Assembly: GCA_965363725.1 (NCBI GenBank)
Contig: CBDTUS010000002.1
Coordinates: forward strand, 1-61,217
DNA: 61,217 nucleotides
Source: an uncultured bacterium
GTDB taxonomy: Bacteria; Krumholzibacteriota; Krumholzibacteriia; LZORAL124-64-63
Direction: 5' to 3'
Of the stretch, positions 6,601 through 53,342 are shown piece after piece. The notes beneath the pieces were generated by a model. That model made no database searches. It was not told where the DNA came from and worked only from the letters and a program-made list of their open reading frames with translations. The position numbers and the translations under genes are program-made. Every line of letters starts with the position of its first letter. Position 1 is the stretch's first letter.

Positions 6601-6608
6601 GGTTAAAT

Positions 6609-10593: not shown

Positions 10594-10603
10594 GGACCAA
10601 GCG

Positions 10604-10633: not shown

Positions 10634-10649
10634 CCTGATGGATATTATG

Positions 10650-11822: not shown

Positions 11823-11824
11823 GT

Positions 11825-11971: not shown

Positions 11972-12026
11972 GACTTCACCTTTCGGTGGGAGTGGCCCAG
12001 TCCGCAGGCCCCTCCGTTGCGAAATC

Positions 12027-13307: not shown

Positions 13308-14191
13308 GATTCATCTCCAGGGTTGTCGATTTCCGCGATCTGATCTTCTTCTTCCTCTTCGGTCTTGATGTAGCGCATGCCGTTCAGGAACGCCGGCCAC
13401 AGGAGAAACACTACCGGGACCGCGTAGAGGAATTCCTGAGTCAGGGCGGGGACTGGTTCATGGCTCAGGTCATTCCGGAATCCGATCTCGTCGAAGGGCA
13501 CGGCGGAGAGATAGATCCAGCTCGTACCCCCCACCTCGTCCTGCCCGTAGATGTGATCCTCGTACCTGTCGGGGTGGTCGGCGACACGGTTCTGGGCGAT
13601 CCGCACCATTTCCCGGCGGGTGCCGAACTCGAGGGCGTCGACCGGGCACGATTCGACACAGGCCGGAATGCCGCCCTCATCGAGACGTTCATGGCACAGG
13701 ATGCATTTCTGGATCTTGGGATTCGCGCTGTGGTATTCGAACTTGGGCACCACGAAGGGACACGACACCATGCAGAAACGGCAGCCCATGCACTTGGACG
13801 CACGCCAGATGACCGGGCCATCTTCCGTCTTCCACATCGCCTGGGTCAGGCAGGCGGTCGAACAGGCCGCCTGATTGCAGTGCATGCACTGCTTCTTGAC
13901 AAAAATCTCGCCCGCGTCGGTATCGAAACGGTTGACAACCGTCCACTGGTCAGGGGTCATATCCCGCCTACTGTCAAAGACCGATTTGTCCTTGTTGTCG
14001 GGGACGGGCAACCCGTTCTCGGTGGCGCAGGCCACCTCGCAATTACGACAGCCAATGCATCGCGTCGTATCGACGAGGACCGAAACGAATTCTTTACTTT
14101 CCAGAGCGGCCTCGGCTTTGCCTGCCGACGCCACGCCTACGGCCGAAGCTCCGGCGAGGCACAGGTTCTTGAGGAAATCCCTTCGTTCCAT
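13304..14191 (-). CDS. Tat-exported 4x[4Fe-4S] ferredoxin-type subunit, operon B
   Basis: MERRDFLKNLCLAGASAVG twin-arginine signal. CIGCRNCEVAC, CMHCNQAACSTAC, CMGCRFCMVSCP, CILC...ACVESCP. C-terminal hydrophobic anchor and acidic tail. Confidence 0.85.
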   Translation of the reverse strand: MERRDFLKNLCLAGASAVGVASAGKAEAALESKEFVSVLVDTTRCIGCRNCEVACATENGLPVPDNKDKSVFDSRRDMTPDQWTVVNRFDTDAGEIFVKKQCMHCNQAACSTACLTQAMWKTEDGPVIWRASKCMGCRFCMVSCPFVVPKFEYHSANPKIQKCILCHERLDEGGIPACVESCPVDALEFGTRREMVRIAQNRVADHPDRYEDHIYGQDEVGGTSWIYLSAVPFDEIGFRNDLSHEPVPALTQEFLYAVPVVFLLWPAFLNGMRYIKTEEEEEDQIAEIDNPGDES

Positions 14192-14202
14192 GAGAAGCCT
14201 CT

Positions 14203-14592
14203 CTAGTCGTCGACGATGATCTCGTCGGGTTTGATCTCCATGGCGATTTCGCCTCGCTTCTTCATGCCGTCGATCAGGACCGTCCGGATCAGGGCGCAGG
14301 CATCGACGATTCTTCGGTCCGCCGGACGGTAAAAGACCTTGTGTCCCTCTTTGCGGGCCAATACGAGATGCTTGCCTTTCAGGGCGCTCAAATGGCGGCT
14401 GACCGTGGAAAGGGGAGCGCCGAGGATTTCGGCCAGTTCACCAACGCTCAATTCTCTCTTGTCCAGACAAGCCATGATGGCCAGCCTCAAGGGGTTGGCT
14501 AGAACTCGGCAATGGGCGGCGTGGATTTCGAAGATTTCAAGGTTCCGGACTTTCATAAGCATGAACATGTGAAAGTTTTCAATCTTTGTCAA
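14203..14592 (-). CDS. ArsR/SmtB-family transcriptional regulator (start uncertain: TTG 14592 or ATG 14568/14556)
   Basis: HCRVLANPLRLAIMACLDKRELSVGELAEILGAPLSTVSRHLSALKGKHLVLARKEGHKVFY is the ArsR-type wHTH. It lies 11 nt upstream of the FeS gene on the same strand. Confidence 0.8.
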   Translation of the reverse strand: MTKIENFHMFMLMKVRNLEIFEIHAAHCRVLANPLRLAIMACLDKRELSVGELAEILGAPLSTVSRHLSALKGKHLVLARKEGHKVFYRPADRRIVDACALIRTVLIDGMKKRGEIAMEIKPDEIIVDD

Positions 14593-14647
14593 TAATAAAA
14601 CAGGATTGCATAATTATTTAACAATCTCTACTTTTTTGATGTGATTT
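14593..14647 (-). promoter_or_regulatory. AT-rich putative promoter/operator region of the ArsR-led operon
   Basis: Minus-sense sequence ATTGTTAAATAATTATGCAAT is an imperfect ATTG...CAAT dyad, followed by TTGACA. Assigned only from position and composition. Confidence 0.3.
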
Positions 14648-14668
14648 CGGGAGGCCCCGGGCCTCCCG
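14648..14668. terminator. GC-rich stem-loop between the redoxin gene and the ArsR-led operon (possible terminator/insulator)
   Basis: CGGGAGGCC-CCG-GGCCTCCCG, 9-bp stem. The T-run lies only on the + side, so termination of the minus-strand redoxin transcript is uncertain. Confidence 0.4.
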
Positions 14669-14708
14669 TATGTTATTTTATTTCAATTTATTAGAGAAGT
14701 AACCGGGT

Positions 14709-15317
14709 TCAGTGCAGGTACTTCACGCTGCAACCGTAAGGAGGTGTTTCGGCTGTTTTGATGGTTTTGCCCTCTGCGAGGGTTGCCAAAGCCACGGCCA
14801 CGTAGTTCGTATCCCCCAGCTTGTCGGCCGAGCGGTTGTCGTCGATGGCCCCGTTGTAGGCGATCGTCCCGTCCGGAGTGATGATGAACATGTGGGGCGT
14901 GGTCTTAGCTCCATAGGCCCGGCCCACTTCGCCGGCTTCATCGATCAGCAACGGGAAGGGAATCTTGTATTCCTTGACCGCCTTCGCGTTTCTATCCAAG
15001 CCGTGCCCCTGCTTTCCCGGAGCATTGGAATTTATCGCCAGCCAAACCACGCCTTTTTCCTCCACCGCGGCGAAGGTTTCATTCATGGTCTGGTGGTTGG
15101 CGTGATGCTTCTTGATGAAGGGGCAGTCCGGGTTGAACCATTCCAGGACGACGGTGAAGCCCTCGTCCAGGTAGGCTTGCAGGGAATGCTCATTTCCTTC
15201 CGTGTCATTCAGCGTGAAACCCGGAGCTTCATCGCCGGGGGCCAATGCCGCCCCGGCCATGGTGGCGATGAGTAATACGGAGGAAAGGGACAGGATGGTC
15301 AAAGTCGTGCGCAGCAT
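14709..15317 (-). CDS. Exported thioredoxin-fold (redoxin/AhpC-TSA-like) protein
   Basis: Signal peptide, then APGFTLNDTEGNEHSL...VVLEWFNPDCPFIKKHH...TTPHMFIITPDGTIAY...YGCSVKY, a thioredoxin-like fold pattern. Confidence 0.75.
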   Translation of the reverse strand: MLRTTLTILSLSSVLLIATMAGAALAPGDEAPGFTLNDTEGNEHSLQAYLDEGFTVVLEWFNPDCPFIKKHHANHQTMNETFAAVEEKGVVWLAINSNAPGKQGHGLDRNAKAVKEYKIPFPLLIDEAGEVGRAYGAKTTPHMFIITPDGTIAYNGAIDDNRSADKLGDTNYVAVALATLAEGKTIKTAETPPYGCSVKYLH

Positions 15318-21960: not shown

Positions 21961-22689
21961 ATGAAACGCTCCATCCAATCCCTGGTTCTTGTTTTCCTGT
22001 TGAGCTTCACCCCTGCCCTGGCCCAGGTCAGTCCGGTGACCATCATAGATCCCATGCCCAACATCACGGCAATCCTCGGCTCGGCCCAGATGGACGGGGA
22101 TCCCGCGGAAGAAATCGCTCTCGTCTATTCCGACCAGCGGCTAATGATCGTCGATTCCTCCACCGGCGCCGTGGAATTCGACAGCGACCCCTACGGGTGG
22201 TCCTACGTCTATCCGCCCGGGTACAACCTGAGTTACAATCCCGACCAGTTGGCCGGACACAACTTCGGCTTCGACGTTTTTGTCGATGAGGACGGTGACG
22301 GCATCTTCTGCCTGATGTCCTTGATCAGCACCGGGGTGATCTACGAGCGGCAATTGGCGATCATCTGTGTGACCGAACAGCCCACGTCCGCTCCTGAGGA
22401 TCTACCCCAGCAGAGATCAGAAATGGACCAGAACTATCCCAATCCCTTCAATCCCACGACCACGATCGACTTTCACCTGGCCTCCGCGGGCAAGACGGTG
22501 ATGAAGATTTTCGATGTTCGGGGAAATCTGGTCCGGACCCTGCTGAATGAACCCATTCCGGCCGGATCCCATTCGATCGCCTGGGACGGCTCCGACAACT
22601 CAGGGCGCCAGGTTGCCAGCGGGACCTATTTCTATCAGCTGGAGACCAACGGCCGGGTGATGACGAAAAAGTCGCTTCTGGTCAAGTAG
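21961..22689 (+). CDS. Secreted hypothetical protein with T9SS-type C-terminal sorting domain
   Basis: Signal peptide MKRSIQSLVLVFLLSFTPALAQV. The last ~80 aa are NYPNPFNPTTTIDFHLASAGKTVMKIFDVRGNLVRTLL...GTYFYQLETNGRVMTKKSLLVK. The N-terminal ~150 aa have no recognised family. Confidence 0.7.
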   Translation: MKRSIQSLVLVFLLSFTPALAQVSPVTIIDPMPNITAILGSAQMDGDPAEEIALVYSDQRLMIVDSSTGAVEFDSDPYGWSYVYPPGYNLSYNPDQLAGHNFGFDVFVDEDGDGIFCLMSLISTGVIYERQLAIICVTEQPTSAPEDLPQQRSEMDQNYPNPFNPTTTIDFHLASAGKTVMKIFDVRGNLVRTLLNEPIPAGSHSIAWDGSDNSGRQVASGTYFYQLETNGRVMTKKSLLVK

Positions 22690-28644: not shown

Positions 28645-30480
28645 ATGAGCCACAATATCCAGCACGATCGCATCGCCGTCATCGATTTCGGCGGCCAGTA
28701 CGCCCACCTCATCGCCACCAAGGTACGTCGCAGTAAGGTGTTGGCGGAAATCCGCCAACCCGAGGACCCCATCGAGGTTTTCGGCGATTACCAGGGGATC
28801 ATCCTTTCCGGCAGCCCGGCGCTGTCGTCCTTCGGCGAGGATTCCGGCTATACCAAGGAAATCTACGACCTGGACCTTCCCATCCTGGGATTCTGCTTCG
28901 GCCATCAGGAAATCGCCAAGCACTACGGGGGAACCGTGGTCAACGGCAAGCAGGAATGGGGGCACGCGGACCTGCACATCAACCGGGAGCATCCCCTGTT
29001 CGCCGGACTGGGCCAAGTCGAGCAGGTCTGGATGAGCCACTTCGATTCCGTCACCGCCGTGGGCCCGGATTTCGAGGAGCTGGGTCACACCGTTCTGGGC
29101 CAAGGCAGCCCGCCCCACCGCTTCGCGGCCATCGGCAGCGACAAGCTGCGCCGCTACGGTTTCCAGTTTCATCCCGAGGTGGACGACACCCTGCACGGCG
29201 ACGAGATGATCGCCAACTTCGTGCTGAACATCTGTGGTTGCCGGCCCACCTGGACCATGGACAGCTACGTGACCGAGCAGGTCGAGAAGATTCGCGCCCA
29301 GGTCGGCGACAATTCGGTGTTCCTGCTGGCCAGCGGCGGGGTCGACTCCACCGTGGCGGCGCGGTTGTTCGGCGAGGCCCTCGGGCCCGACCGGTTGAAT
29401 CTGCTGCACGTGGACAACGGCCTGATGCGCAAGGACGAGTCGGCCGGCGTGGTCGAGATGTTTCGTGAACTGGGGCTCGACCAGAACTTCCACTTCATCG
29501 ACGCCACGGACACGTTCCTAGCGGCGCTCGCCGGCAAGATCGAACCCGAAAATAAGCGCCGTGCCATCGGCGACACCTTCATCTCCGTGTTCGAAAGCGA
29601 AGCCAAGCGGCTGGACATCGAGGACCACCTGCTCGGACAGGGCACCATCTATCCCGACACCATCGAGACCGGCGGCACCAAGCGGGCCGACACCATCAAG
29701 ACCCATCACAACCGGGTCCCGATCATCGAGGAGATGATCGCCGCCGGCAAGGTCGTCGAGCCGCTGGCCGATCTGTACAAGGTCGAGGTCCGTGAACTGG
29801 GGGAAATGCTGGGCATTCCCCACCACATGATCTGGCGGCACCCCTTCCCCGGGCCGGGCCTGGGCGTGCGGCTGCTGTGTTCGGACGGAAGGATGGAAGA
29901 CGCCGCGGCCCTGGATACCATCGCCCCGGCCGTGACCGACGCGGTGGGCCGGTACGGTCTGGCCGGCGCCCCGCTGCCGATCAAGTCGGTCGGCGTCAAG
30001 GCCGACCTGCGCTCCTACGAGCATCCGGTTCTCATTCACGGGCAGGCCGACTGGGACGTCCTGGCCGAGGCTTCGGGCACCATCTTCAAGACCGTCGCCG
30101 GGATCAACCGCACCCTGTGGAACCTGACGGCGGACATGCCGGCCGGATTCCGACCCCTGGCCGCCACCATGACCCGCGACCGTCTCGATCTGCTGCGCGA
30201 ATGCGATCACCTGATGATGGATGGGCTGCGGCGCCACGGCCTCTATGGGGAAATCTGGCAGTGCCCGACGGTGCTGGTTCCCCTGGAAATAGACGGGCAG
30301 GGCCGGGAACTCTGCATCCTGAGGCCCATCCACAGCGAGCGGGCCATGACCGCCACGGCCGCACGCCTGCCGGTGGAACTGCTGGAGGAATTGCGGCAAT
30401 CGATCACCGCGCTGCCGGGGATAAGCGGGCTGGCCTACGACCTGACGAGCAAACCGCCGGGAACCATCGAGTGGGAATAG
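28645..30480 (+). CDS. guaA: GMP synthase (glutamine-hydrolysing), long form
   Basis: Trimmed to MSHNIQHDRIAVIDFGGQYAHLI. GATase block GFCFGHQ. PP-loop LLASGGVDSTV. C-terminal dimerisation domain ...KPPGTIEWE. Confidence 0.9.
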   Translation: MSHNIQHDRIAVIDFGGQYAHLIATKVRRSKVLAEIRQPEDPIEVFGDYQGIILSGSPALSSFGEDSGYTKEIYDLDLPILGFCFGHQEIAKHYGGTVVNGKQEWGHADLHINREHPLFAGLGQVEQVWMSHFDSVTAVGPDFEELGHTVLGQGSPPHRFAAIGSDKLRRYGFQFHPEVDDTLHGDEMIANFVLNICGCRPTWTMDSYVTEQVEKIRAQVGDNSVFLLASGGVDSTVAARLFGEALGPDRLNLLHVDNGLMRKDESAGVVEMFRELGLDQNFHFIDATDTFLAALAGKIEPENKRRAIGDTFISVFESEAKRLDIEDHLLGQGTIYPDTIETGGTKRADTIKTHHNRVPIIEEMIAAGKVVEPLADLYKVEVRELGEMLGIPHHMIWRHPFPGPGLGVRLLCSDGRMEDAAALDTIAPAVTDAVGRYGLAGAPLPIKSVGVKADLRSYEHPVLIHGQADWDVLAEASGTIFKTVAGINRTLWNLTADMPAGFRPLAATMTRDRLDLLRECDHLMMDGLRRHGLYGEIWQCPTVLVPLEIDGQGRELCILRPIHSERAMTATAARLPVELLEELRQSITALPGISGLAYDLTSKPPGTIEWE

Positions 30481-30495
30481 TTGGATTCCGAAGCT

Positions 30496-31143
30496 TTAAT
30501 GACAAGCCGTGCCGATGGCGCCGGCCATCTCCGACAGATCCGACAGGTTGACCGCCCAATCAAAGTATAGGTCCGACCGGAATTCGTAATCCGCGTCAAA
30601 GAAATCCTCGGCGAACTCCACGACATCCGTCAGGTTCACCACCAGGTCGGCATTTAGATCCGGGCTGTTGAATAGGAGTGGAAAATAGAAAAGGCTCGGC
30701 GAATCCCCTCCACTTATCCGGATCACGCTGGTGCCCGAATCCTGCCCCCCACCGGCCAGAGGCCGAGACCAGGTGGTGCTCCCTTGATCATCCGTGGGGG
30801 CGTCGGCAATGCTCCCCCCCGAACAAAAAACCAGACTTCCCCCCGCGGACTCGAGCCACATGTCCTCGGCGGGATAGCCCACCATCGGACCTGTGGGCGG
30901 ACAACTGCTGTAGAGGGTCAGGTAGATCGTGGCGTCGGCCGTCGTGCCCGAATGGTGCCTCGCCTCGGTCATCGGTGGGCCTGATCCATCCGGTATGACC
31001 AACAGGGCCGTATCTGCCTGGATATCCTGGACGATGGTGGAGAGTTCCAGATCGGGACAGCCCACCACTTGAGCCAGGGCATGCCCACCGGGAAGGACCA
31101 CCAGGGCCAGAATGAAGACCATCCTCGGCAATTGCCTATTCAT
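30496..31143 (-). CDS. Secreted ~215-aa protein, unknown N-domain + dockerin/EF-hand-like C-terminus (paralog 1)
   Basis: Signal peptide. Blocks VIPDGSGPP, DATIYL, YPAEDMWLES, GGSIADAPTDDQGSTTW, NSPDLNADLVVNLTDV, FRSDLYFDWAVNLSDL. Ends ..GTACH. Confidence 0.75.
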   Translation of the reverse strand: MNRQLPRMVFILALVVLPGGHALAQVVGCPDLELSTIVQDIQADTALLVIPDGSGPPMTEARHHSGTTADATIYLTLYSSCPPTGPMVGYPAEDMWLESAGGSLVFCSGGSIADAPTDDQGSTTWSRPLAGGGQDSGTSVIRISGGDSPSLFYFPLLFNSPDLNADLVVNLTDVVEFAEDFFDADYEFRSDLYFDWAVNLSDLSEMAGAIGTACH

Positions 31144-31165
31144 GTGTTCATCCCTTCATCAATTC

Positions 31166-31807
31166 TCAGGGACAGGACTTCCCCAGGGCCCGCGCCAGGA
31201 CCGACAGGTCGGACAGGTTGACGGAACCGTCCCTCATCAAATCCGCCCGGAATTCGTACGGCCCGAAATAGTCCACCGAGAACCGGTGGATGTCGGTGAG
31301 GTTGATGGCTCCGTCGCCGTCCATGTCCGGGCTGTTGAAGTTGAGGGTCTGACCCGCAGCGTCTCCCACGGGCATGCCGTTGACCATGACCCGGCAGTTG
31401 CCCTGGTCATTGCCGCCGGCCTTCAGGGGCTGGGACCACTGGGTGTGCCCGTCTTCGTCGGTGTTGGCGTCGGCGATCGTCCCGCCCTGGCAACTGGCCA
31501 ATCCCCCGCCAATGCTCTCGAGCCACATGTCTTCCCGGGGAAAACCCGGGACGGGATCCTCGCCGAAGCAATAGGTGATCACGGTCAGATGGATGGTGGC
31601 GTCGACGGTGGTTCCGTCGGCGGTCCGGGCCTCGGTCAACGGCGGGCCCGAGCCGTCGGGAATCACCAGCAGGGTGGCGAGGCCTTCGAAGGCCTGGGCG
31701 ACGATGGATAGATCGAGATCGGGAACTCCCGTGCAAGCCAGGGCCGGTCCGCTGACCAGGCCGCAGAGCGCAACAGTGGCCAACAGGACAAGTGTGGATT
31801 GTTTCAT
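31166..31807 (-). CDS. Secreted ~215-aa protein, unknown N-domain + dockerin/EF-hand-like C-terminus (paralog 2)
   Basis: VIPDGSGPP, DATIHL, FPREDMWLES, GGTIADANTDEDGHTQW, NSPDMDGDGAINLTDI, FRADLMRDGSVNLSDL. Ends ..GKSCP. Confidence 0.75.
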   Translation of the reverse strand: MKQSTLVLLATVALCGLVSGPALACTGVPDLDLSIVAQAFEGLATLLVIPDGSGPPLTEARTADGTTVDATIHLTVITYCFGEDPVPGFPREDMWLESIGGGLASCQGGTIADANTDEDGHTQWSQPLKAGGNDQGNCRVMVNGMPVGDAAGQTLNFNSPDMDGDGAINLTDIHRFSVDYFGPYEFRADLMRDGSVNLSDLSVLARALGKSCP

Positions 31808-31844
31808 GGGAGCCCCCTTGGATTTGCGAACCGGATGTCACTTG

Positions 31845-31850
31845 TATTAT
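31845..31850 (-). promoter_or_regulatory. -10 box (TATAAT) upstream of paralog pair 1-2
   Basis: Minus sense: GCGGTATAATAC...(~30 nt)...CAAGGGGGCTCCCATG. The same CGGTATAAT ... CAAGGGGG layout occurs at 35971..35976. Confidence 0.5.
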
Positions 31851-31891
31851 ACCGCAAAGGCCACCTTCACCGCAAATCCAGGCCACCCATG

Positions 31892-31921
31892 AAAAAACCC
31901 CGGGCCGGGCCCGGGGTTTTT
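31892..31921. terminator. Intrinsic terminator after the OmpA-family gene
   Basis: AAAAAACCCCGGGC-CGG-GCCCGGGGTTTTT, flanked by A and T runs, 25 nt past the stop at 31946. Confidence 0.8.
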
Positions 31922-31945
31922 CCCTGGTCGAATGAGATCGAGCGC

Positions 31946-33409
31946 CTACTCCTCGGGCGGCATCCGGTCGGTCCGGATGAGCTCGACCCGTCGGTTACGG
32001 GCGGCGCCTTCCCGGGTGGAATTGTTGCCGATCGGCAGGTCTTCGCCGTAACCGACGGCGGTCATCCGCGCCGGATTGATACCCCTGCCTATGAGATATT
32101 CCCGCACGGCTTCAGCCCGCAACATCGAGAGGGCCCGGTTCAGATCCGCCGAACCGGAGCTGTCGGTGTGACCCTGGATCTCGATGGTCGCATCGGGCCA
32201 GGCATGCAGCGACGCGGCCACATTGTCCAGCACCGTCAGGGACTCGTAGGTGAGCTCGGCCTTGCCGAGAGTGAAGTTGACGCCCTCCAGGATCATATCC
32301 GGCGTGATCTCCGCGATGAGCGGACAGCCCTGACCATCGACCTCCACACCCGCGGGGGTGCCGTCACACAAGTCGTCGGCGTCCAGGACCCCGTCGCCGT
32401 CGTTGTCGGGATCGGGGCAGCCGTCTTCGTCCATGTACCCGTCCATGTCTTCCATTTCCTCGGGGCACTGGTCCTGGGCGTCGATCACGCCGTCACCGTC
32501 GTTATCCGGATCGGGGCAACCGTCCTCGTCCTGGTACCCGTCCATGTCTTCGGCGTCGTCGGGGCACTGGTCCTGGGCGTCGAGGATGCCGTCGCCGTCG
32601 TTATCGGGATCGGGACAACCGTCTTCGTCCATGTACCCGTCCACGTCCTCGGCTTCATCGGGGCAGCGGTCGTACTTGTTCAGGAAGCCGTCGCCGTCCT
32701 TGTCCTTGTTGCCGCCGAAGTAGAAGGTCAGGCCGAGGAACGCGTCGAACATGGCCTGGTTGGCATCGACTTCAGCTTGACCGTAAATGGTGCCCGACCC
32801 GATGTTGTCCGTGGTGTTGTCAATGATGAAGGTGTAGCGGGCGGCCACTTCGAGGGCCACCGTCTCGCTGAAGAAGTATTCCAGACCCAGGCCCAGCGTC
32901 GAGGTCAGGTTCATGCTCTCGAGTTTCTTGGGATCCCAGGAATTGGTGTACCCGTCCACCACGGGACCGCTGGGAAACAAACCGGGGGAGCTGTCGTTAC
33001 CCGATTCATCGCGCACCTTCCAGTCGATGACACCCACGTGGGCCGAAGCGAAGGGCTTGAAGCTGCTTTCGGGGGAGAAATAGTAGCGCGCGCCGGCCAT
33101 GCCCTGCCACATCGTGGTGTAATAGGGATAGACGGCCGAGAAGGTGAACCCGGCATCTTCACCGACATGGGAGCCAGGACGCACGGTTCCGTACTTCAAT
33201 TGCGTGCTGAAGGACCAGTTGTTGGACAGGCCGTACCGGAAATGCAGGCCGCCGAACTGGTCCACGTTGGAATAGTCATGGTTGCCGCCCAGCAGCTTGT
33301 GGATACCGAAATCCGCTCCCAGCCCAACACGGCCATCGTTTTCCACGGCCAACGCCGATGAGCCGGCCACCAGAGCCAACGCCAAGGAAATAATAACGAT
33401 CCGTTTCAT
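31946..33409 (-). CDS. OmpA-family outer-membrane protein: beta-barrel + thrombospondin type-3 repeats + OmpA_C peptidoglycan-binding domain
   Basis: Trimmed to MKRIVIISLALALVAGSSALA (GGAG RBS). N-terminal barrel, three DxDxDG...CP repeats, and C-terminal IEIQGHTDSSGSADLNRALSMLRAEAVREYLIGRGI...NRRVEL. Confidence 0.85.
   Translation of the reverse strand: MKRIVIISLALALVAGSSALAVENDGRVGLGADFGIHKLLGGNHDYSNVDQFGGLHFRYGLSNNWSFSTQLKYGTVRPGSHVGEDAGFTFSAVYPYYTTMWQGMAGARYYFSPESSFKPFASAHVGVIDWKVRDESGNDSSPGLFPSGPVVDGYTNSWDPKKLESMNLTSTLGLGLEYFFSETVALEVAARYTFIIDNTTDNIGSGTIYGQAEVDANQAMFDAFLGLTFYFGGNKDKDGDGFLNKYDRCPDEAEDVDGYMDEDGCPDPDNDGDGILDAQDQCPDDAEDMDGYQDEDGCPDPDNDGDGVIDAQDQCPEEMEDMDGYMDEDGCPDPDNDGDGVLDADDLCDGTPAGVEVDGQGCPLIAEITPDMILEGVNFTLGKAELTYESLTVLDNVAASLHAWPDATIEIQGHTDSSGSADLNRALSMLRAEAVREYLIGRGINPARMTAVGYGEDLPIGNNSTREGAARNRRVELIRTDRMPPEE
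32372..32668. repeat. Three tandem 99-bp (33-aa) repeats inside the OmpA-family gene
   Basis: Protein units are CPDEAEDVDGYMDEDGCPDPDNDGDGILDAQDQ, CPDDAEDMDGYQDEDGCPDPDNDGDGVIDAQDQ and CPEEMEDMDGYMDEDGCPDPDNDGDGVLDADDL. The nucleotide units are visibly near-identical. Confidence 0.8.
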
Positions 33410-33592
33410 GGCTAACTCCATTTTTTTGAATCCTGTTTTTCGGGTTCGGCGGAATTTTCCCCGATTCCCCCGAATTTATCCAGACAATCTGGAATTTTTC
33501 CACCATATTCTTTCGACGCCCTGTGCGTTCGTTTGATAACTTTTTGCAGCCCACCACCATCCGACTGGTCCAACTCGAACCTGGAGACAAAG

Positions 33593-34603
33593 TTGATCAC
33601 TCATTGGCAAAATCACCCCCTGGCCTCGGAAATGGGTTTTGCGCTGGGCTCCGTGCGGCAGGCCGGCCGACTCTGCCGCGCCGTGCAGGCCGAAATTGAC
33701 CCCGGCGCCCTGGCCAAGAAGGATCGCAGTCCCGTCACCGTGGCGGATTTCGGCAGCCAGGCCCTGATCTGCCGGACCCTGCGGGAGGCCTTTCCCGACG
33801 ATCCCATCATCGGCGAAGAAGACGCGGCTGTTCTGCACGGGCCCGACCAGGCCCCCATGCTGGCCCGGGTGACCGAACACGTGGCCAAGCTGCGGCCGGG
33901 TGTGGATTCGGAGCAGGTTTGCGAATGGATCGACTATGGCGGCGCCAAGGACTATACCTCCAGATTCTGGACCCTGGATCCCATCGACGGCACCAAGGGA
34001 TTCCTCCGCGGCGGCCAGTACGCCATCGCCCTGGCGCTGATTCTCGACGGCCAGGTCGCGGCCGCAGTGCTGGGCTGCCCGAACCTCGGCCCCACCCTGG
34101 ACGCCGACCGCGGCGATGGATCCCTTTTTGTCGCCCTGAAAGGTCACGGGACCTGGTCGCTGCCCCTGCTGGGCGAAGGCGAACCTGTCCCCGTGAAGGT
34201 CAGCGGCCAGACCGACTGCGCCTTCATTCGATTTTGTGAATCGGTGGAAGCCGCCCATTCATCCCACGGCGATGCGGCGCGCCTGGCCACGGAGTTGAAG
34301 ATCCAAGCCGCCCCGGCCCGGCTGGACAGCCAGGCAAAATACGCCGTGGTGGCCCGCGGAGAAGCCGAGGCCTACCTGCGGCTACCCCGCGACCAGGTTT
34401 ATCGCGAGAAGATCTGGGACCACGCGGCGGGCGTGCTGGTGGTGACCGAAGCAGGGGGCAGGGTGACTGACATCGCCGGCGGTGACCTCGATTTCAGCCA
34501 GGGTCATCAGCTGGAAAAAAATCGGGGCGTGGTCGCGACCAACACCCCGGTCCATGATTCGTTGCTGAAGGCGATTGGGGATCTGGGCATCGGAGCTTCC
34601 TGA
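33593..34603 (+). CDS. 3'(2'),5'-bisphosphate nucleotidase (HAL2/inositol-monophosphatase family)
   Basis: SPVTVADFGSQA, FWTLDPIDGTKGFLRGGQYAIALAL, KIWDHAAGVLVVTEAGG. Start taken as TTG 33593 (GGAG 7 nt upstream); the alternative is ATG 33632. Confidence 0.8.
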   Translation: MITHWQNHPLASEMGFALGSVRQAGRLCRAVQAEIDPGALAKKDRSPVTVADFGSQALICRTLREAFPDDPIIGEEDAAVLHGPDQAPMLARVTEHVAKLRPGVDSEQVCEWIDYGGAKDYTSRFWTLDPIDGTKGFLRGGQYAIALALILDGQVAAAVLGCPNLGPTLDADRGDGSLFVALKGHGTWSLPLLGEGEPVPVKVSGQTDCAFIRFCESVEAAHSSHGDAARLATELKIQAAPARLDSQAKYAVVARGEAEAYLRLPRDQVYREKIWDHAAGVLVVTEAGGRVTDIAGGDLDFSQGHQLEKNRGVVATNTPVHDSLLKAIGDLGIGAS

Positions 34604-34610
34604 GCGGGCC

Positions 34611-35258
34611 CTAATTGCAATGGTGCCCTATCGAGTCGGCCAACGGTACCAGGTCCGACAGGTTGACCACTCCGTCGCGATGCAGGTCGGAGCGGAAATT
34701 GTAGTCTCCATAAATATCCATGGTAAAAAATTGCACGTCGGTCAGGTTCACGGTCCCGCTGGCGTTGATGTCCGGGCTGTTCATGGCCAGCGGCAAAGGC
34801 GGGGTCGTGAGGGGATTCCCGTTGACGAAGACAACGAAAGGGCCTTCGCTGTGGCCCCCACCCCTGGGCCGCTGGAACCAGGTTGTCAAACCGGCCTGAT
34901 CGGTATCGGAATCGGGCCACAATCCGAATGGGATGCAAAAATACATGCCACCGTCCTCCGCCTTGAGCCAGATATCCTCGCGGGGAAAGTCCGCAATGGG
35001 CTGGTAGAGCAGATCCAACAATTCCAGGGTGATCGTGGCGTCGGCGAGGGCCCCGTCGGGAGTCCGTGCCTGTGTGAAATACGGTCCGGATCCTGAAGGC
35101 AGGATCATCAGGGTGAGGGTCTCAGGTCCGGAATAGGCCAGCCAGGCATGGGAAAAATTAGGGTCAGGCGGCCAATCCTCCGTTTCGGCGAGCGCATTTC
35201 CAGCGAGCCCACATACCACCCATAGAACCAGCATCATTCCCCAGGTTTTTCTGCACAT
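34611..35258 (-). CDS. Secreted ~215-aa protein, unknown N-domain + dockerin/EF-hand-like C-terminus (paralog 3)
   Basis: ILPSGSGPY, DATITL, FPREDIWLKA, DSDTDQAGLTTW, NSPDINASGTVNLTDV, FRSDLHRDGVVNLSDL. Ends ..GHHCN. Confidence 0.75.
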   Translation of the reverse strand: MCRKTWGMMLVLWVVCGLAGNALAETEDWPPDPNFSHAWLAYSGPETLTLMILPSGSGPYFTQARTPDGALADATITLELLDLLYQPIADFPREDIWLKAEDGGMYFCIPFGLWPDSDTDQAGLTTWFQRPRGGGHSEGPFVVFVNGNPLTTPPLPLAMNSPDINASGTVNLTDVQFFTMDIYGDYNFRSDLHRDGVVNLSDLVPLADSIGHHCN

Positions 35259-35290
35259 GACTCAACCGCCTCTCCAACGGCCACGCTTCA

Positions 35291-35938
35291 TCAGGGGCAC
35301 TCGGCGCCGAAGCCCTCGACGAAGGTCGCGATATCCGACAAGTTGATGTAACTGTCGTACCACAAATCCGACCGGAAACGGTAGACCCCTCCGTACAAAT
35401 CCTCCGCCAGCAGGACTACATCTGAAAGGTCCACATCCAGGTCCCCGTTGATGTCCGGACTGTTGAAGTGGACGTTCAACCCCGACGTCGAGGCGAGAGC
35501 CCACCCCATAACGTACACCTGGGTAAGATCCTCGCTGAAACCGCCTCCCCGCAAGGGAAGAACCCAGGTCGACTCTCCGTTCTGATCAGTACTGGTGTCG
35601 GCGATGGACCCACCCGGGCAGAGGACAAAATGGGGATCCAGGGATTCCAGCCACATGTCCTCGCGCGGAAAATTCGTAAAGGGGGTCCCCCAGCCGTTCA
35701 AAAGCCTGACGTGGATGGTGGCATCGACCACCCCCTCGGAAATGACGCGGGCTTGATCGAAGCGGCTGCCGTAACCATCCGGATGAACCCTGACCCCCAT
35801 TGTTCCGCCGCCGGTGTACTCGGTCCAACAGATGGATAAGGTCGGGTCGGGCAGATCGATTTGGGCCTGGGCGATGGACACGACCAGAAGTAGGACCAAT
35901 AGGCAAAGCGAAAATTTGCGAATCAAACGCATGGCCAC
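35291..35938 (-). CDS. Secreted ~215-aa protein, unknown N-domain + dockerin/EF-hand-like C-terminus (paralog 4)
   Basis: VHPDGYGSR, DATIHV, FPREDMWLES, GGSIADTSTDQNGESTW, NSPDINGDLDVDLSDV, FRSDLWYDSYINLSDI. Ends ..GAECP. Confidence 0.75.
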   Translation of the reverse strand: MAMRLIRKFSLCLLVLLLVVSIAQAQIDLPDPTLSICWTEYTGGGTMGVRVHPDGYGSRFDQARVISEGVVDATIHVRLLNGWGTPFTNFPREDMWLESLDPHFVLCPGGSIADTSTDQNGESTWVLPLRGGGFSEDLTQVYVMGWALASTSGLNVHFNSPDINGDLDVDLSDVVLLAEDLYGGVYRFRSDLWYDSYINLSDIATFVEGFGAECP

Positions 35939-35970
35939 CCCCTTGAATTGAGCAATGTTCCCTACTCCTG

Positions 35971-35976
35971 ATTATA
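35971..35976 (-). promoter_or_regulatory. -10 box (TATAAT) upstream of paralog pair 3-4
   Basis: Minus sense: ACGGTATAATCAGG...(~25 nt)...TTCAAGGGGGTGGCCATG. This parallels 31845..31850. Confidence 0.5.
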
Positions 35977-36021
35977 CCGTATTTCGTCCTTCAGAGGAAG
36001 CGACCTGCCCTATCGTTGCCG

Positions 36022-36567
36022 TTACTTGAACACCACCTTGGCGTCAGGCGCCTCGACATAGAATATCTCATGGCCGGGAACCCATTGGTCGTTCTGGAGA
36101 TATTCCGAGGCCATGTGCAGGCGGCCGTCCTCGAGCACCCGGCTGGTCGAACGGACTTCGGTGATCCCTTCGGTGCCACCCTCCACCTTTTCCGCAGCCG
36201 TGTAGATCCCGTCCTGGAGGGTCATCGTCCCATGGGTGAAAAACCCGGCGGTGGTAAAGTAGTAGAAAGCCACCGACTCGAGTTTGCCGTCCCAGAAGAT
36301 GATCGTTTCCCCGCCGTACTCCCCCTCGTTCAGCGAGTGGGTAACCCGGATCGCCTTGCCGCCGAGCGTTTCCTCCCAGCGCTGGACATCCACCGAGGTC
36401 CGACCGCTGGCCGCGTCGGTGAATTCTCCCTGGAAGGTCCGTCCCACGTATTGTTCGAGTTCCTTCAGGTTCTCGTCGAGACCCGCGGCAGCAGGCCCGA
36501 CGGCCAATCCTGAAACCATGACGACCACAATGACGGCCGGCAGAAACTTGATTCTCTTCATGCTCAT
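36022..36567 (-). CDS. Secreted hypothetical protein (~181 aa)
   Basis: Track ORF 36022..36912 trimmed to MSMKRIKFLPAVIVVVMVSGLAVGPAAA (signal peptide). Beta-rich sequence. No family recognised. Confidence 0.55.
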   Translation of the reverse strand: MSMKRIKFLPAVIVVVMVSGLAVGPAAAGLDENLKELEQYVGRTFQGEFTDAASGRTSVDVQRWEETLGGKAIRVTHSLNEGEYGGETIIFWDGKLESVAFYYFTTAGFFTHGTMTLQDGIYTAAEKVEGGTEGITEVRSTSRVLEDGRLHMASEYLQNDQWVPGHEIFYVEAPDAKVVFK

Positions 36568-36646
36568 CCCTTTCGCTCGACTTGGGTCCGACCATGGTCC
36601 GACCATGGCTCGATAAATCTGCTTCCGGATCGGCCCGTTCGGCTGC

Positions 36647-38004
36647 ATGATGACCGGAAGCGACACGATACTTCCAACGGCGACGGGCGTCCAACGCCCG
36701 GACGACGAAACAGGATTTGATGCCAGCATGATCATCGTCATCGGAGGCGGACCGGCGGGGTTTTTCGGGGCCATCACCGCCCGGGAAAACGATCCCGGTC
36801 GGCCGGTCGTTCTGCTCGAAAAAAGCGCCCAGGTCCTGGCCAAGGTGAAGGTCAGCGGAGGCGGACGGTGCAACGTGACCCACGCCTGTTTCGATCCGCG
36901 TGATCTCGTCACCCATTACCCTCGCGGCCAAAAGGAACTGATCGGGCCCTTCCACAAATGGGGCCCCACCGAAACGGTCGCTTGGTTCTCCGCACGCGGC
37001 GTCCCGCTGAAGACCGAAGACGACGGCCGCATGTTTCCCGTGACCGATGATTCCGGGACCATCGTGGACTGCCTGATGAAGACCGCCCGTTCGCTGGGGG
37101 TGGAAATCCGGACCAGTTGCCCGGTGGAAAAGATCACGCCGGCAACTTCGGGAAGCGGCTTCACCGTGCAGCTGACCGGTGGCGAAGAACTGGCGGGCAG
37201 TCAGGTCCTTCTGGCGACCGGCGGGAAAACTTCCCGGGGAGGATCCACCGCCGACGGCTATGCCTTGGCCCGCGGACTCGGCCACACCATCGTGGCGCCG
37301 GTCCCCTCGCTGTTCACCTTCCGCATAAGCGACCCCCTGCTGGAGGGACTGGCAGGCGTGTCGGTTCCCGAAACCGAGGTCCGGCTCGTAGCTGCCGCCA
37401 AATCCGACCGTCATTTGCGGCAATCCGGCCCCATCCTGGTGACCCATCACGGCCTGAGCGGCCCGGCGGTGCTCAAGTTGTCCGCCTGGGGCGCCCGCCG
37501 CCTGCACGATCTGGCCTATCGGTTCGAGATCGGGATCAACTGGCTGCCGGGCCGCACGGAGCAGGACCTCGACACCGAACTCCAGGACCGGACCCGCACC
37601 AGCGGCCGGCAGCATATCTCCACCGTAGGACTGGCAGAATTGCCCCGCCGCCTGTGGGCTGCGCTGGCGGCGCACGCCGGGGTGGCCGCCGACACCAGAT
37701 GGGCCGACCTTGACCGCCGGGCCCGCCTGCGACTGGCCGCCGCGCTGACCGACACCCGCCTGGCCGTCACGGGACAGGACACGTTCAAGGAAGAGTTCGT
37801 GACCTGCGGCGGGATTCCTCTCCCAGAGGTCGACCTGCGAACCATGGCGAGCAAACTCTGTCCGGGACTGCACCTGGCGGGGGAACTGCTGGACATCGAC
37901 GGAGTGACCGGCGGCTTCAATTTCCAATCCTGCTGGACCACCGGATATCTGGCCGGCCTGGGGCTGGCCGGCGATCCCTCGAACCCCGGACCCGAGGACC
38001 TGTC

Positions 38005-43840: not shown

Positions 43841-44725
43841 ATGAGGAAGCATATACCAAACATCATTCTGGGTCTCCTGCTCGTGTGGCCGGCCGCGGCC
43901 CTGGCGGTCGACTCCATTGCCGTGAGCGGAACTGCAGACTGCACGGGCTGGAATACGGACGTGGAAATCACCTTCCGTCCCGGAGCTGATATGGTACGTC
44001 TGAGCTACGTCGTGGCCCTGAACGGACCCAATGGGAACGAACTGGAACGATACGAATTCGATGAGTGGCTCGACGTCCCCGCCGCCGCCGTCGCCGTTTT
44101 TTCCTATAGCGGATCCTGGAGTACCGAACTTGCGGACGGGGCCTACGACATGGCCTGCGACGTCCTGGTGCTGGATCTCGTCCCCGACGCGGAAAACAGA
44201 TTCGAGGGTGATTTCACCGCCGTAATCGAGTGCGGCGACACTCCCACCGTGACGAAAATCTGTCCTCGCGGGGCCTGGTTCTGGAGGAGCCATCCCGCCG
44301 ACTGGCCGGTCACCAGCCTGGAACTGGGAGCGGATTACCTGGACCAGACCGCCCTGCTCGACATTCTGTTTCGCTATTCGCGTGGCGACATGACCGTTCT
44401 TTTGGCCAAGGCCCTCATTTCTGCCAAGCTGAACCTGGCCGGCGGCGCGGGCCACAGCCACAACATCCTGGACGTCATTCCCGAGGCCAACGCCTATCTG
44501 ATCACCCATCCGGTCGGCAGCAGGCCCCGCCGGACCGGCCGCAGGTCCGCCATATCCCTGGTGATGTCGCTGGTCCGGTACAATCACCGACGGTGCGAGG
44601 ATCCCAACGGCGAGGAAGACGACTCCTTCAACGCCGGCACGGCCAAACCCGGAACCGGTGATTACGACAAGGCCGCCGCCATTGAGGTCATGTCCCTGGG
44701 TACCCTGAAAGCCCTGTACCGATAG
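43841..44725 (+). CDS. Secreted hypothetical protein (294 aa)
   Basis: Signal peptide ..LLVWPAAALAV. Beta-rich N-half, helical C-half (CPRGAWFWRSHPADWP...LLAKALISAKLNLAGG). Ends ..SLGTLKALYR. AGGAGAAG RBS. Confidence 0.6.
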   Translation: MRKHIPNIILGLLLVWPAAALAVDSIAVSGTADCTGWNTDVEITFRPGADMVRLSYVVALNGPNGNELERYEFDEWLDVPAAAVAVFSYSGSWSTELADGAYDMACDVLVLDLVPDAENRFEGDFTAVIECGDTPTVTKICPRGAWFWRSHPADWPVTSLELGADYLDQTALLDILFRYSRGDMTVLLAKALISAKLNLAGGAGHSHNILDVIPEANAYLITHPVGSRPRRTGRRSAISLVMSLVRYNHRRCEDPNGEEDDSFNAGTAKPGTGDYDKAAAIEVMSLGTLKALYR

Positions 44726-50455: not shown

Positions 50456-50624
50456 GCCTTCCCTTCCCGTTCCAGCCAGTCGAATTTTGATCCGGATACT
50501 ATTCTAACCCATTCGAAACGGGTTGGCCCGGGCAATCCAGGTGATTTTTGTGTATCATGGGGAACCATATGATTCCCCCCCCGACAGGGACGATTTTCCA
50601 ACACTGCCCGGTGCAGGAGTACAC

Positions 50625-53342
50625 ATGGACGCAGGCAAATCCCTGGCTCATTACGAAATCCTCGCCAAGATCGGCGTCGGAGGCATGGGTGAAGTCTACC
50701 GGGCGCGCGACACCAAACTCGACCGCGAAGTCGCCCTGAAACTTTTGCCCGATGCCTTCACCCGGGATCCCGACCGCCACACCCGCTTCCACCGGGAAGC
50801 CCAAGCCCTGGCCGCCTTTTCGCACCCCCACGTGGCGGGCATCCACAACATCGAAGAAGAAGACGGCCAGCACTTCCTGGTGATGGAACTGGCCGAGGGC
50901 GAAGATCTGTCCGACCGGTTGACCAGGGGTGCCATCACGCCGAAAACCGCCCTGCAGATCGCCAGCCAGATCGCCCTGGCCCTCGAAGCCGCCCAAGAGA
51001 AGGGCATCGTTCACCGCGACCTGAAGCCAGCCAACATCAAGGTCACCGAAGAGGACCAGGTGAAGATCCTGGATTTCGGGCTGGCCAAGATGGTCGCCGA
51101 CGAAACCACGACCGACACCCTGGCCCTGGGCGATTCGCCCACCATGACCTCGAACATGACCCGCGAAGGCGTGATCCTCGGCACGGCGGCCTACATGAGT
51201 CCCGAACAGGCCCGAGGCAAGTCCCTGGACAAGCGCACCGACATCTGGGCCTTCGGCTGCGTGCTGTACGAAATGCTCACCGGCCGGCCGGCCTTCCCGG
51301 GCGATACCGTTTCGGACATCCTGGCGGGCATCATCAAATCGGACCCCGACTGGAAACTGCTGCCGGCCGATCTGCACCCCAGCGTCACCATGCTGCTGCA
51401 CCGGTGCCTGAAGAAGAACCCGCGCCAGCGGCTGCATGACATCGCCGACGCGCGCATTGTCCTGGATGACGTGATGAGCGGCACCGATTCGGGGATCGCC
51501 ACGGCACTCGGGACCCAAAAGTCCAATCGTGGTCTTCCCGTTTGGGTGGGCGTCTTGGGCATGCTGGCCATCGTCGGGTTGACGGCCAAGCTGTTCCTGG
51601 CGGAATCCCCCGAAGAGCCGTCTCCCGTACGGCTGTCGACCCTGACCTTCAGCGGCCAGGACTGGTCCCCCGACGCCTCGCCGGACGGCGATCTGGTGAC
51701 CTTTACCTCGAACCGCGATGGCATCCCCCGCATCTGGTTGAAACAGTTGGCCAGCGGCAGCGAAGTGCCGCTCACCGACGGGTCGGACGACCAGGCACGC
51801 TTCTCCCCTGACGGTTCCCAGATCCTTTTCGTCCACGACGAACAAAACATCCGCCATCTCTACCGCACCCCCGTTCTGGGTGGCCAGCCGCGCAAGGTCA
51901 TGGAAAACGTTACCGAAGCGGACTGGTCCCCTGACGGAACCGAGGTCGCTTTCCTGAGGATGTCCCAGCAGGCGGCCACCAATGCCTTCAATTTGGGGAT
52001 CGCCGATGTCCAGACAGGTACCGAAAGAATCCTGCTCACCGTGGACAATCGGTTGTGTTACGGGGTTCGCTGGTCGCCGGACGGACGCTGGATACTCATG
52101 ACCGAAAATGCCCTCAGCGGAAATCTGGTTGCCGCCGGGCAGCTTGATCTGGTGGACGTCGAAACCGGGGACATCCGGCAACTGCCCATTACCGACCTGA
52201 CCGGTTCGCTCACCGCCGCCGACTGGGCACCCGATGGAAAATCATTCCTGGTGGGCAAGACCCAGGAACTGCTGTCGCACATCATCGGCCGGCCCGGTCT
52301 GATCATGGAGTATTTCATCGAGACGGAAACAACCCGGCCATTGTTCTGGTCCCACTTCCGGACCCCGCAGGGCGGCTGGGGATTCGCGACCATTGCGGTG
52401 TTGAACGACCACCAGGTCGTTGTCGAGGGGTTCAAGCGCAACGCCATATTGCAGGAATTCCCCTGGCCCGGCACCGAAGACCCCGGTGGTACCGCCACAC
52501 CCCGAATCCTCACCACCAGTATCGGTTTCGACCGGCAGCCGGTCTATTCACCGGACGGGAAGCATGTCCTGTTTTCCTCGAACCGGGCGGGCAACATCGA
52601 CTTGTGGTTGGTGGAAAGGGCCACGGGAGATTTGCGCCAGTTGACCGACGACCCCGCTCATGACTGGGACCCCGCCTTTTCACCGGACAATGAACACATC
52701 CTGTGGAGTTCCAACCGCGGTGGCCACATGGAAGTCTGGATTTCCAACCTTGACGGCAGCGGCGCCAGGCAGGTCACCCAGGATGGTGAGGACGCAGAAA
52801 ATCCGACCATGACTCCGGACGGCCAGTGGATCATCTATGCCAGCGCCAATGACGAAAAAATCGGGCTGTGGAAAATCCGGCCCGACGGCACCGACGCGGT
52901 TCATCTTCACGAAGGAACCGACCTCATTCCCGAGGTTTCGCCCGACGGCCGCTACGTCCTGTTTTCCGTCATCCGCAGCCTCGATTACGTGATCAAGGTG
53001 GTGGACATCCACTCCGGTGAAGTCGTGCCCTTTGAAATCGAAATGTTACTGACCCAGCGCAACCAGGATGTGGTCTATGGTCGCGCCCGCTGGACTCCCG
53101 ACGGCAGCGGCATTGTCTACATAGGGCAGGACCCCGCTGGAAGAAGCGGCATCTACGTGCAGGATTTCACCCCCGGCCAGAACACGCACGCCACCCGGCG
53201 ACAGGTGGCCGGGTTCTCCATGCTGTATTCCAGTGAATCCCTGGGCGTTGCCCCGGACGGCAAGAGCCTCGTGGTCTCCACGATATTCAACCGGCAGACC
53301 CTCCAGATGGCCGACCTGCTGCAACTGGAGAACTGGCGCTGA
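50625..53342 (+). CDS. Ser/Thr protein kinase fused to TM helix and TolB-like (PD40) beta-propeller repeats
   Basis: Trimmed to MDAGKSLAHYEILAKIGVGGMGEVYRARD (AGGAG RBS). HRDLKPANI, DFGLAK. TM VWVGVLGMLAIVGLTAKLFL. Repeated ..SPDG..(I/L/V)(A/L/V)F.S.R.G motifs. Confidence 0.9.
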   Translation: MDAGKSLAHYEILAKIGVGGMGEVYRARDTKLDREVALKLLPDAFTRDPDRHTRFHREAQALAAFSHPHVAGIHNIEEEDGQHFLVMELAEGEDLSDRLTRGAITPKTALQIASQIALALEAAQEKGIVHRDLKPANIKVTEEDQVKILDFGLAKMVADETTTDTLALGDSPTMTSNMTREGVILGTAAYMSPEQARGKSLDKRTDIWAFGCVLYEMLTGRPAFPGDTVSDILAGIIKSDPDWKLLPADLHPSVTMLLHRCLKKNPRQRLHDIADARIVLDDVMSGTDSGIATALGTQKSNRGLPVWVGVLGMLAIVGLTAKLFLAESPEEPSPVRLSTLTFSGQDWSPDASPDGDLVTFTSNRDGIPRIWLKQLASGSEVPLTDGSDDQARFSPDGSQILFVHDEQNIRHLYRTPVLGGQPRKVMENVTEADWSPDGTEVAFLRMSQQAATNAFNLGIADVQTGTERILLTVDNRLCYGVRWSPDGRWILMTENALSGNLVAAGQLDLVDVETGDIRQLPITDLTGSLTAADWAPDGKSFLVGKTQELLSHIIGRPGLIMEYFIETETTRPLFWSHFRTPQGGWGFATIAVLNDHQVVVEGFKRNAILQEFPWPGTEDPGGTATPRILTTSIGFDRQPVYSPDGKHVLFSSNRAGNIDLWLVERATGDLRQLTDDPAHDWDPAFSPDNEHILWSSNRGGHMEVWISNLDGSGARQVTQDGEDAENPTMTPDGQWIIYASANDEKIGLWKIRPDGTDAVHLHEGTDLIPEVSPDGRYVLFSVIRSLDYVIKVVDIHSGEVVPFEIEMLLTQRNQDVVYGRARWTPDGSGIVYIGQDPAGRSGIYVQDFTPGQNTHATRRQVAGFSMLYSSESLGVAPDGKSLVVSTIFNRQTLQMADLLQLENWR

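Follow-up and report, generated by a model that had tools for sequence, protein, structure and literature searches.

Paralogous Ig-like/dockerin-like proteins of an uncultured Krumholzibacteriota bacterium and a candidate cohesin-fold partner

The DNA analysed here (the window, all 61,217 nucleotides of the stretch; contig CBDTUS010000002.1 of GenBank assembly GCA_965363725.1) is from an uncultured bacterium of the Krumholzibacteriota. Its minus strand carries four paralogous genes, designated A1 to A4 and, together with their homologues, family A: A1 (30496..31143, 215 aa, ATG start), A2 (31166..31807, 213 aa, ATG), A3 (34611..35258, 215 aa, ATG) and A4 (35291..35938, 215 aa, GTG). The products are small secreted proteins with an Ig-like N-terminal half and a dockerin-like C-terminal half, and the subject of this report is their make-up, their family and a candidate binding partner.

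An initial annotation, made from the letters of the window, had described four open reading frames (ORFs) of near-identical length with signal peptides and shared motifs. The ORF list of the window bears out the coordinates and the lengths (213-215 aa), and 49 alignment columns are invariant in all four proteins, whose pairwise identity is 37.6-49.3%. The database copy of A4 (P0002) starts at an internal Met and has 213 aa. By eye, each N-terminus shows a hydrophobic h-region and then an AxA-type site (ALA↓Q, ALA↓C, ALA↓E and AQA↓Q for A1 to A4), and each protein has the penultimate Cys that had been described (..TACH, ..KSCP, ..HHCN, ..AECP). The motif blocks given in that annotation are real and were drawn slightly too strictly: A1 has YPAEDMWLE in place of the FPRED block, A3 has FGLWPDSDTD in place of the GG(S/T)IAD block, and A4 reads VHPDGYG at the first block.

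A family profile was built from the four window proteins. It recovered 481 clusters in a 90%-identity database and 1,385 representatives in a 50%-identity library (802 at E<=1e-10, 360 at E<=1e-30), so that the likeness of the four paralogues is far beyond chance. The family hidden Markov model (HMM) scores 269 bits on A1, 262.5 on A3 and 265.5 on A4. Nearly all members are 205-220 aa long, they are named 'hypothetical protein' throughout in their sources, and NCBIfam holds no model for them. The named organisms are Candidatus Krumholzibacteriota/Krumholzibacteriia metagenome-assembled genomes (MAGs). In a scan of one genome per GTDB species, 79 loci of family A were found, mostly in Krumholzibacteriia MAGs, with a minority labelled Fibrobacteraceae, Gemmatimonadales, Latescibacterota or Verrucomicrobia; several loci came from one MAG, and the family is therefore multi-copy. 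In the literature on dockerins or cohesins in Krumholzibacteriota, in Latescibacteria or with type IX secretion, as far as titles and abstracts in part tell, no description of family A was found.

A lipoprotein nature can be ruled out for the bulk of the family: a strict lipobox pattern occurs in 8 of 233 members and a permissive one in 28 of 233. The clade of A2 stands apart. Within residues 20-26 of A2 a Cys comes straight after ...ALA, and the mature protein has five Cys, an odd number, and A2 with its sub-clade may be an N-terminally lipidated variant, though the lipobox (...ALA↓C) is non-canonical.

The pairing of cohesins with dockerins is chiefly known for holding Gram-positive cellulosomes together. 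Dockerin-like modules found elsewhere are usually orphans, with no partner known for them. A type I dockerin has two tandem F-hand repeats, each with a 12-residue calcium loop (ligands at positions 1, 3, 5, 9 and 12) and a helix; the last ~55 residues of family A are dockerin-like. In A2 (aa 158-213; 31169..31336, minus strand), loop 1 DMDGDGAINLTD is followed by helix 170-181 and loop 2 DLMRDGSVNLSD by helix 198-207, and the segment ends G..C-P; the corresponding minus-strand segments of the other copies are 30499-30669 (A1), 34614-34781 (A3) and 35294-35464 (A4). The helices are those of an AlphaFold2 model of A2, computed with a 101-sequence alignment (predicted local distance difference test, pLDDT, 93.7), which contains two loop-helix units. 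Loop 1 has the consensus D-I-N-G-D-x-x-V-N-L-T-D, a canonical EF-hand-type loop, with the ligands D1, N3, D5, N9 and D12 conserved at 72-100% across the family. In loop 2 (D-L-x-R-D-G-x-V-N-L-S-D), D1, D5, N9 and D12 are kept and the position-3 ligand is missing family-wide; position 6, written as Asp or Gly in the initial annotation, is Trp in A1 and Ser in A4 instead of Gly.

Among the four window proteins, A2 alone passes the gathering cut-off of Pfam Dockerin_1 (PF00404; 25.2 bits vs 22.9). A3 has a weak match (13.7 bits, E 0.072), and A1 and A4 have none. Of 101 family A members, 24 match Dockerin_1 at E<=0.01 (best 5e-7), and no other Pfam family recurs among them. When the family A profile was compared with the PDB, it matched a solved dockerin, 2y3n_B, at E 1.4e-6 and chains of XDoc (X-module plus dockerin) dyads at E 3e-5 to 1e-3 (2b59_B at 3.1e-5, 3kcp_A at 1.2e-4, also 5g5d_B and 4wi0_B); the alignments to these chains, from CipA and other scaffoldins, reach into the last sandwich strands. 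Given the Pfam, PDB-profile, loop and model results, the earlier description of the C-terminus as a degenerate dockerin-like module was accurate, and the word 'degenerate' is fair to loop 2.

The Ig-like half occupies aa 28-157 of A2 (31337..31726, minus strand) and, on the same strand, 30670-31062 in A1, 34782-35177 in A3 and 35465-35857 in A4. In the A2 model, beta strands between about residues 30-35 and 158 form a beta-sandwich. The densest conservation of the whole family lies here: PDGSG, DATI, P.EDMWLES, a Cys (C106 in A2), GG.IAD.NTD..G.T.W..P and GG. The domain had been left unrecognised by the initial annotation and belongs to no known family by Pfam, NCBIfam or Foldseek. No Pfam or NCBIfam model matched it in the window proteins, nor did Pfam in the 101 members, and a Foldseek search of the A2 model against the PDB returned nothing at E<=0.001. 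The best structural matches were filamin repeats, IPT/TIG domains and S-layer Ig-like domains (best E 1.5e-3). The best 50 included no cohesin, enzyme or lectin and no XDoc entry, so that homology to X-modules was undetected. A known enzyme, lectin or cohesin was ruled out for this domain on the missing Pfam and NCBIfam models and on these weak, generic Ig-like matches.

The two halves are never found apart: all 103 Ig-domain matches, from 86 sources, carry the dockerin, and AlphaFold2 gives one confident two-part model for both halves of A2. An Ig-like half placed directly N-terminal to a dockerin, and inseparable from it, is the architecture of the XDoc dyad. Where such dyads are known, their binding partner is an anchoring cohesin.

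The penultimate Cys is a family-wide feature. It is present in 119 of the 120 family A matches listed, typically within G-x-x-C-P, and 191 of 233 stand-alone members end in Cys-Pro. A second Cys (Cys107 in A1) is equally invariant, and both are present in 337 of 346 modules. Three proteins truly end without the terminal Cys (P0234, P0260 and P0263), and all three have lost Cys105 as well (Fisher p=5.7e-5 for joint loss, from the raw, uncorrected table); two further apparent exceptions were alignment artefacts, with real ends ..GCP and ..TCPQ. Where one protein has two or three modules in tandem, each module boundary keeps the Cys and has lost the Pro. In the A2 model, residue 211, just before Cys212, is in a beta-bridge, and strand 103-105 directly precedes Cys106.

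Because the terminal Cys is lost jointly with Cys105, is kept in internal modules and comes just after a beta-bridge in the model, with a strand just before its putative partner, it is most likely one of two Cys in an intramolecular disulfide by which the C-terminus of the dockerin is fastened to the sandwich. The same retention in internal modules and joint loss rule it out as a C-terminal processing or sorting signal, and the initial annotation, which had treated it as a C-terminal feature of its own, has to be revised on this point. Further Cys, which vary across the family, occur jointly in pairs at profile positions 24/81 and 81/137 and would fit a second disulfide in part of the family, A1 (mature Cys 29, 81, 107 and 214) and A2 among them.

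In dockerins, a stabilising contact of the extreme C-terminal residues has been described as an 'intramolecular clasp', which in ScaADoc includes a C-terminal Pro (Slutzki et al. 2013, PMC3821032). Family A likewise involves its C-terminal end, usually Cys-Pro. The difference is that its putative clasp would be a covalent disulfide, and would reach the preceding Ig-like domain and not the dockerin's own N-terminus.

At 21 loci of related genomes, a gene of a second family, here called B, comes after the A gene on the same strand at a distance of no more than 600 bp, and each of these loci has at least two B genes. The B proteins are ~195 aa long, have a signal peptide and end in ...ATExxSWGxVKALYR. 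The genes lie in a conserved block, ileS - dksA-type zinc finger - lspA - rluD - STAS - anti-sigma kinase - ruvX - mltG - small ORF - A - B - B - C25 peptidase - SpoIID - glycoside hydrolase family 3 (GH3), and look-ups centred on B in long contigs gave the same block in 4 of 4 cases. An AlphaFold2 model of B (pLDDT 89.6) has nine strands and a low-confidence tail. When this model was searched against the PDB with Foldseek, ~36 of the best 50 matches were type I, II or III cohesins (best 5nrm_A, E 8e-4; probability 0.97-1.00; target-normalised template modelling score 0.45-0.56). They include ScaE 2zf9, 1qzn, 3l8q, the cohesins of the XDoc complexes 5m0y_A and 2b59_A, and SdbA 2bm3. This is not a generic effect of beta-sandwiches, because the same search with the A model gave no cohesins. 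The predicted fold of B is thus cohesin-like. Homology between A and B themselves was considered and rejected, as hhalign aligned their signal peptides alone.

A and B are also found joined. In seven proteins (P0246, P0197, P0208, P0221, P0253, P0183 and the ORF at 208-3069 of locus L059), A is fused to B and followed by further domains and a type A sorting domain of type IX secretion systems (T9SS); P0246 scores 28.5 on TIGR04183, against a cut-off of 23. The B module of these fusions is without the KALYR tail. Other proteins consist of two or three A modules and a T9SS C-terminal domain (CTD), as A-A-A-CTD or A-A-CTD (P0121, P0122, P0123 and P0125).

The peptidase gene always lies directly 3' of A-B-B and is followed by SpoIID (10595-15025, plus strand, in L045; equivalents in L035, L071, L079 and L082-L085). 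It encodes a Peptidase_C25 protein of 1,396-1,476 aa, and several of these peptidases carry a FlgD_ig-type T9SS CTD. Among NCBIfam models, that of the PorU sortase matches best (E 1.9e-50), yet the score, 171 bits, falls far short of its cut-off, 420; the enzyme may be the divergent PorU of the phylum or a separate gingipain-like enzyme.

The tail of B was also seen elsewhere. In the form ...E-x-x-S-[W/L/M]-G-x-[V/L]-K-A-L-[Y/F]-R it ends at least three unrelated secreted families: B (genes in L034-L085); a 294-aa window protein (43841-44725, plus strand) and each of its 21 homologues in the databases; and a protein of ~280 aa present in L001, L002 and L017. Tail-bearing proteins outside the window were mapped, besides the B genes, at 6264-7313 (minus strand) in L001 and at 10624-11433 (minus strand) in L070. 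Across 816,311 ORF residues, 52 occurrences of the pattern are C-terminal and one is internal. The tail lies outside every Pfam and NCBIfam model, and AlphaFold2 confidence is low there. Possibly it serves as a new tag for sorting or anchoring, with a link to the neighbouring C25 peptidase.

Taken together, these data lead us to a reading that we consider somewhat probable: family A is the XDoc-like dockerin half of a divergent, non-cellulosomal, T9SS-linked cohesin-dockerin system, with B as the likely socket. B is proposed as the partner because it is adjacent to A, is fused to A and has a cohesin-like predicted fold; the idea of a cohesin-like partner, raised in the initial annotation, thereby gains indirect support. 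Each window gene codes for a Sec-exported protein of ~190 mature residues, its two halves always found together. The last Cys of the dockerin would be disulfide-bonded to the invariant Cys of the sandwich, as a covalent version of the clasp, and the dockerin half would bind the cohesin-fold protein B with calcium. In related genomes, B is encoded directly 3' of a 'core' A gene and 5' of the T9SS-type C25 (PorU/gingipain-like) peptidase, and it also occurs fused within T9SS cargo. The window genes would be dispersed paralogues, serving as extra plug-in subunits of an envelope or surface assembly, and their B partner would be encoded elsewhere in the genome.

Several observations weigh against this assignment. 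As to B, none of 91 members matches Cohesin (PF00963) even at E<=10 and no Pfam model matched consistently; the B profile found nothing at E<=10 among PDB sequences, NCBIfam gave no match, and the Foldseek E-values of the cohesin matches are modest (8e-4 to 2e-2). The A-B adjacency reflects in part shared ancestry of the loci, and its counts are not phylogenetically independent. As to A, three of the four window proteins fall under the Pfam dockerin cut-off, and loop 2 is degenerate. In the window, no B gene lies near A1-A4, and the only tail-bearing protein (43841-44725) is not convincingly B-like. The window copies also fall in clades separate from the B-adjacent core A, so their partner could differ; in a rough neighbour-joining tree they group with the copies of syntenic loci. 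Finally, Pfam and NCBIfam detect in A1-A4 no type A C-terminal sorting domain of the T9SS (TIGR04183, PF18962 or FlgD_ig type, ~70-80 residues), which in this family is confined to fused relatives with several modules; since the four proteins have a Sec signal alone, they may stay in the periplasm after export.

The principal rival does without a protein partner altogether. Here the dockerin-like part would be a built-in calcium EF-hand pair. Jointly with the disulfide it would stiffen a small Ig-like binding protein, periplasmic or secreted, and the function would lie wholly in the conserved acidic/aromatic face of the sandwich, for example in binding a glycan or another envelope component. 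The degenerate loop 2, the Sec signal as the sole export signal and the inseparable halves all suit such a protein, as does the placement of the densest invariant motifs (PDGSG, DATI, EDMWLES, IAD.NTD..G.T.W) in the N-domain. Dockerin-like modules without cohesins are, moreover, widespread outside cellulosomes according to Peer et al. 2009, as cited in PMC8542988. What this explanation leaves unaccounted for is the repeated adjacency and fusion of the module to a cohesin-fold domain and the T9SS sorting domains on the A-A-A proteins; we hold it to be possible and rather unlikely.

A second rival keeps both families and changes their role: A and B would be subunits of a surface fibre or lattice in which chains with a dockerin and a cohesin-like domain polymerise head-to-tail. 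Stand-alone A and B would be matured or anchored by the adjacent C25 peptidase with the KALYR tail as recognition element, in loose analogy to the gingipain-dependent type V pilus and to PorU anchoring. The A-B-B-C25 order is conserved across deep lineages, the A-B fusions carry a CTD in place of the tail, the tail is strictly C-terminal and common to unrelated secreted families, and S-layer Ig-like domains are among the top Foldseek matches of A. Against these points, there is no evidence of cleavage or transfer of the tail, the C25 protein scores far under the PorU cut-off, most family A members have no lipobox, and strand-exchange features were not identified. This fibre model is doubtful.

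The reading of A and B as a dockerin-cohesin pair invites comparison with three described systems. The first is the type II XDoc of clostridial scaffoldins (C. thermocellum CipA, PDB 2B59 and 3KCP), in which an Ig-like sandwich likewise sits directly N-terminal to a dockerin of two calcium-loop/helix repeats and forms one unit with it; the family A profile aligns to 2b59_B over the last sandwich strands and the dockerin. Family A differs in that its proteins stand alone, without scaffoldin or enzyme; in its host, a diderm phylum of the Fibrobacteres-Chlorobi-Bacteroidetes (FCB) group with T9SS cargo; in the invariant Cys pair that would link the dockerin C-terminus to the sandwich; and in a shorter inter-repeat linker and a degenerate loop 2. 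No XDoc structure, as noted, is in the best 50 Foldseek matches of the A model.

The second is the ScaE protein of R. flavefaciens (anchoring type III cohesin, PDB 2ZF9), which ranks second among the structural matches of B (E 1.8e-3, probability 1.00). Like B, ScaE has a single cohesin(-fold) domain and a short C-terminal element, which in ScaE is functionally tied to a transpeptidase. In ScaE this element is an LPXTG motif used by a Gram-positive sortase, whereas B ends in ...SWGxVKALYR without a transmembrane segment and has a C25 peptidase as its neighbour.

The third, from Cloacimonadota MAGs, is a cellulosome-like cohesin-dockerin system for which anchoring by a T9SS CTD was inferred (PMC8542988). 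It shares with the present case an uncultured lineage of the FCB group, the T9SS CTD for surface attachment and the involvement of a C25 peptidase. There, the dockerins sit on enzymes, and a 3,755-aa scaffoldin carries the cohesins as tandem repeats that Pfam recognises; family A has its dockerin attached to an Ig-like module that is non-catalytic, and its candidate partner, the cohesin-fold B, is small, single-domain and undetected by sequence models. The general concept thus has a precedent, while family A and its proposed partner do not.

The surroundings of the four genes were inspected as well. Between the two A pairs, as the initial annotation had it, lie an OmpA-family gene (31946-33421, minus strand) and a nucleotidase gene (33533-34603, plus strand). 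The OmpA-family protein has an outer-membrane beta-barrel at its N-terminus, a series of acidic D-x-D-G-D-G repeats that contain Cys and resemble thrombospondin type 3 repeats (TSP3; weak TSP_3 match), and a peptidoglycan-binding OmpA domain at its C-terminus. The nucleotidase is of the HAL2 type, a 3'(2'),5'-bisphosphate nucleotidase (TIGR01330, 313.5 bits vs a cut-off of 267). The resulting order is guaA / A A / OmpA / nucleotidase / A A / HI0933-like flavoprotein. Another 13-14 loci show synteny with it, and the copy number of family A at this locus varies from 1 to 4. A scan for promoters and terminators over 30000-36700 was uninformative, with counts no higher than expected from shuffled sequence.

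The initial annotation had also proposed that the A proteins dock onto this OmpA/TSP3-repeat protein, for which the position of its gene (138 bp upstream of A2 on the same strand, with co-transcription possible) and its acidic repeats of calcium-binding type can be cited, but Pfam finds no cohesin-like domain in it, and its gene lies beside family A in 5 of 82 sources (L003-L006 and the window, all close relatives) and is absent from the other loci with the guaA / nucleotidase / HI0933 synteny of the window, so that a conserved partnership is ruled out on co-occurrence and the docking is very improbable. Nor are tandem pairs a hallmark of the family, as had been suggested: copies stand in tandem at ~14 of the loci sampled, and the others have one gene each.

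Other genes near family A were recorded. A protein of 586-624 aa without Pfam or NCBIfam match is encoded directly upstream of A in nine loci, most of them with the guaA/nucleotidase/HI0933 synteny of the window (7387-9147 in L001 and 7377-9152 in L002, both plus strand; also in L026, L028, L039 and L047). The window lacks this protein and has instead a secreted ORF of ~180 aa within 36022-36912 (minus strand). Upstream neighbours of 581-591 aa were tried as one conserved partner and rejected as heterogeneous: they comprise an M28 peptidase with CTD, a PNGase-F-like protein with CTD, a histidine kinase and a 586-aa protein.

Further away in the window, two T9SS cargo proteins were found, an M1 peptidase with a FlgD_ig/Por_Secre_tail C-terminal domain (56193-58919, minus strand) and a 242-aa protein that is barely more than a sorting domain (21961-22689, plus strand); the organism therefore uses type IX secretion. 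A Ser/Thr protein kinase of 939 aa, fused to PD40/WD40-type beta-propeller repeats, is encoded at 50523-53342 (plus strand).

A wider scheme can be sketched, and we think it unlikely as it stands: a phylum-wide, non-cellulosomal cohesin-dockerin system within T9SS surface attachment, in which B would be anchored by the C-terminal tag ...SWGxVKALYR, recognised by the C25 peptidase, and several Ig-dockerin paralogues, the four of the window among them, would plug into it as interchangeable surface modules. If true, it would mean a new sorting signal and a new use of cohesin-dockerin pairing in diderm bacteria. Family A itself comprises more than 1,000 sequence clusters in an uncultured diderm phylum, has gone without a name, and has an N-domain that no Pfam or NCBIfam model covers. 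If the A-B interaction is real, it would give an orphan dockerin family a concrete partner and imply that cohesins can diverge past sequence detection; small, disulfide-stabilised, calcium-dependent binding pairs of this kind might also find use in protein engineering. It would further hint at how T9SS-bearing bacteria outside the Bacteroidota build their surface assemblies.

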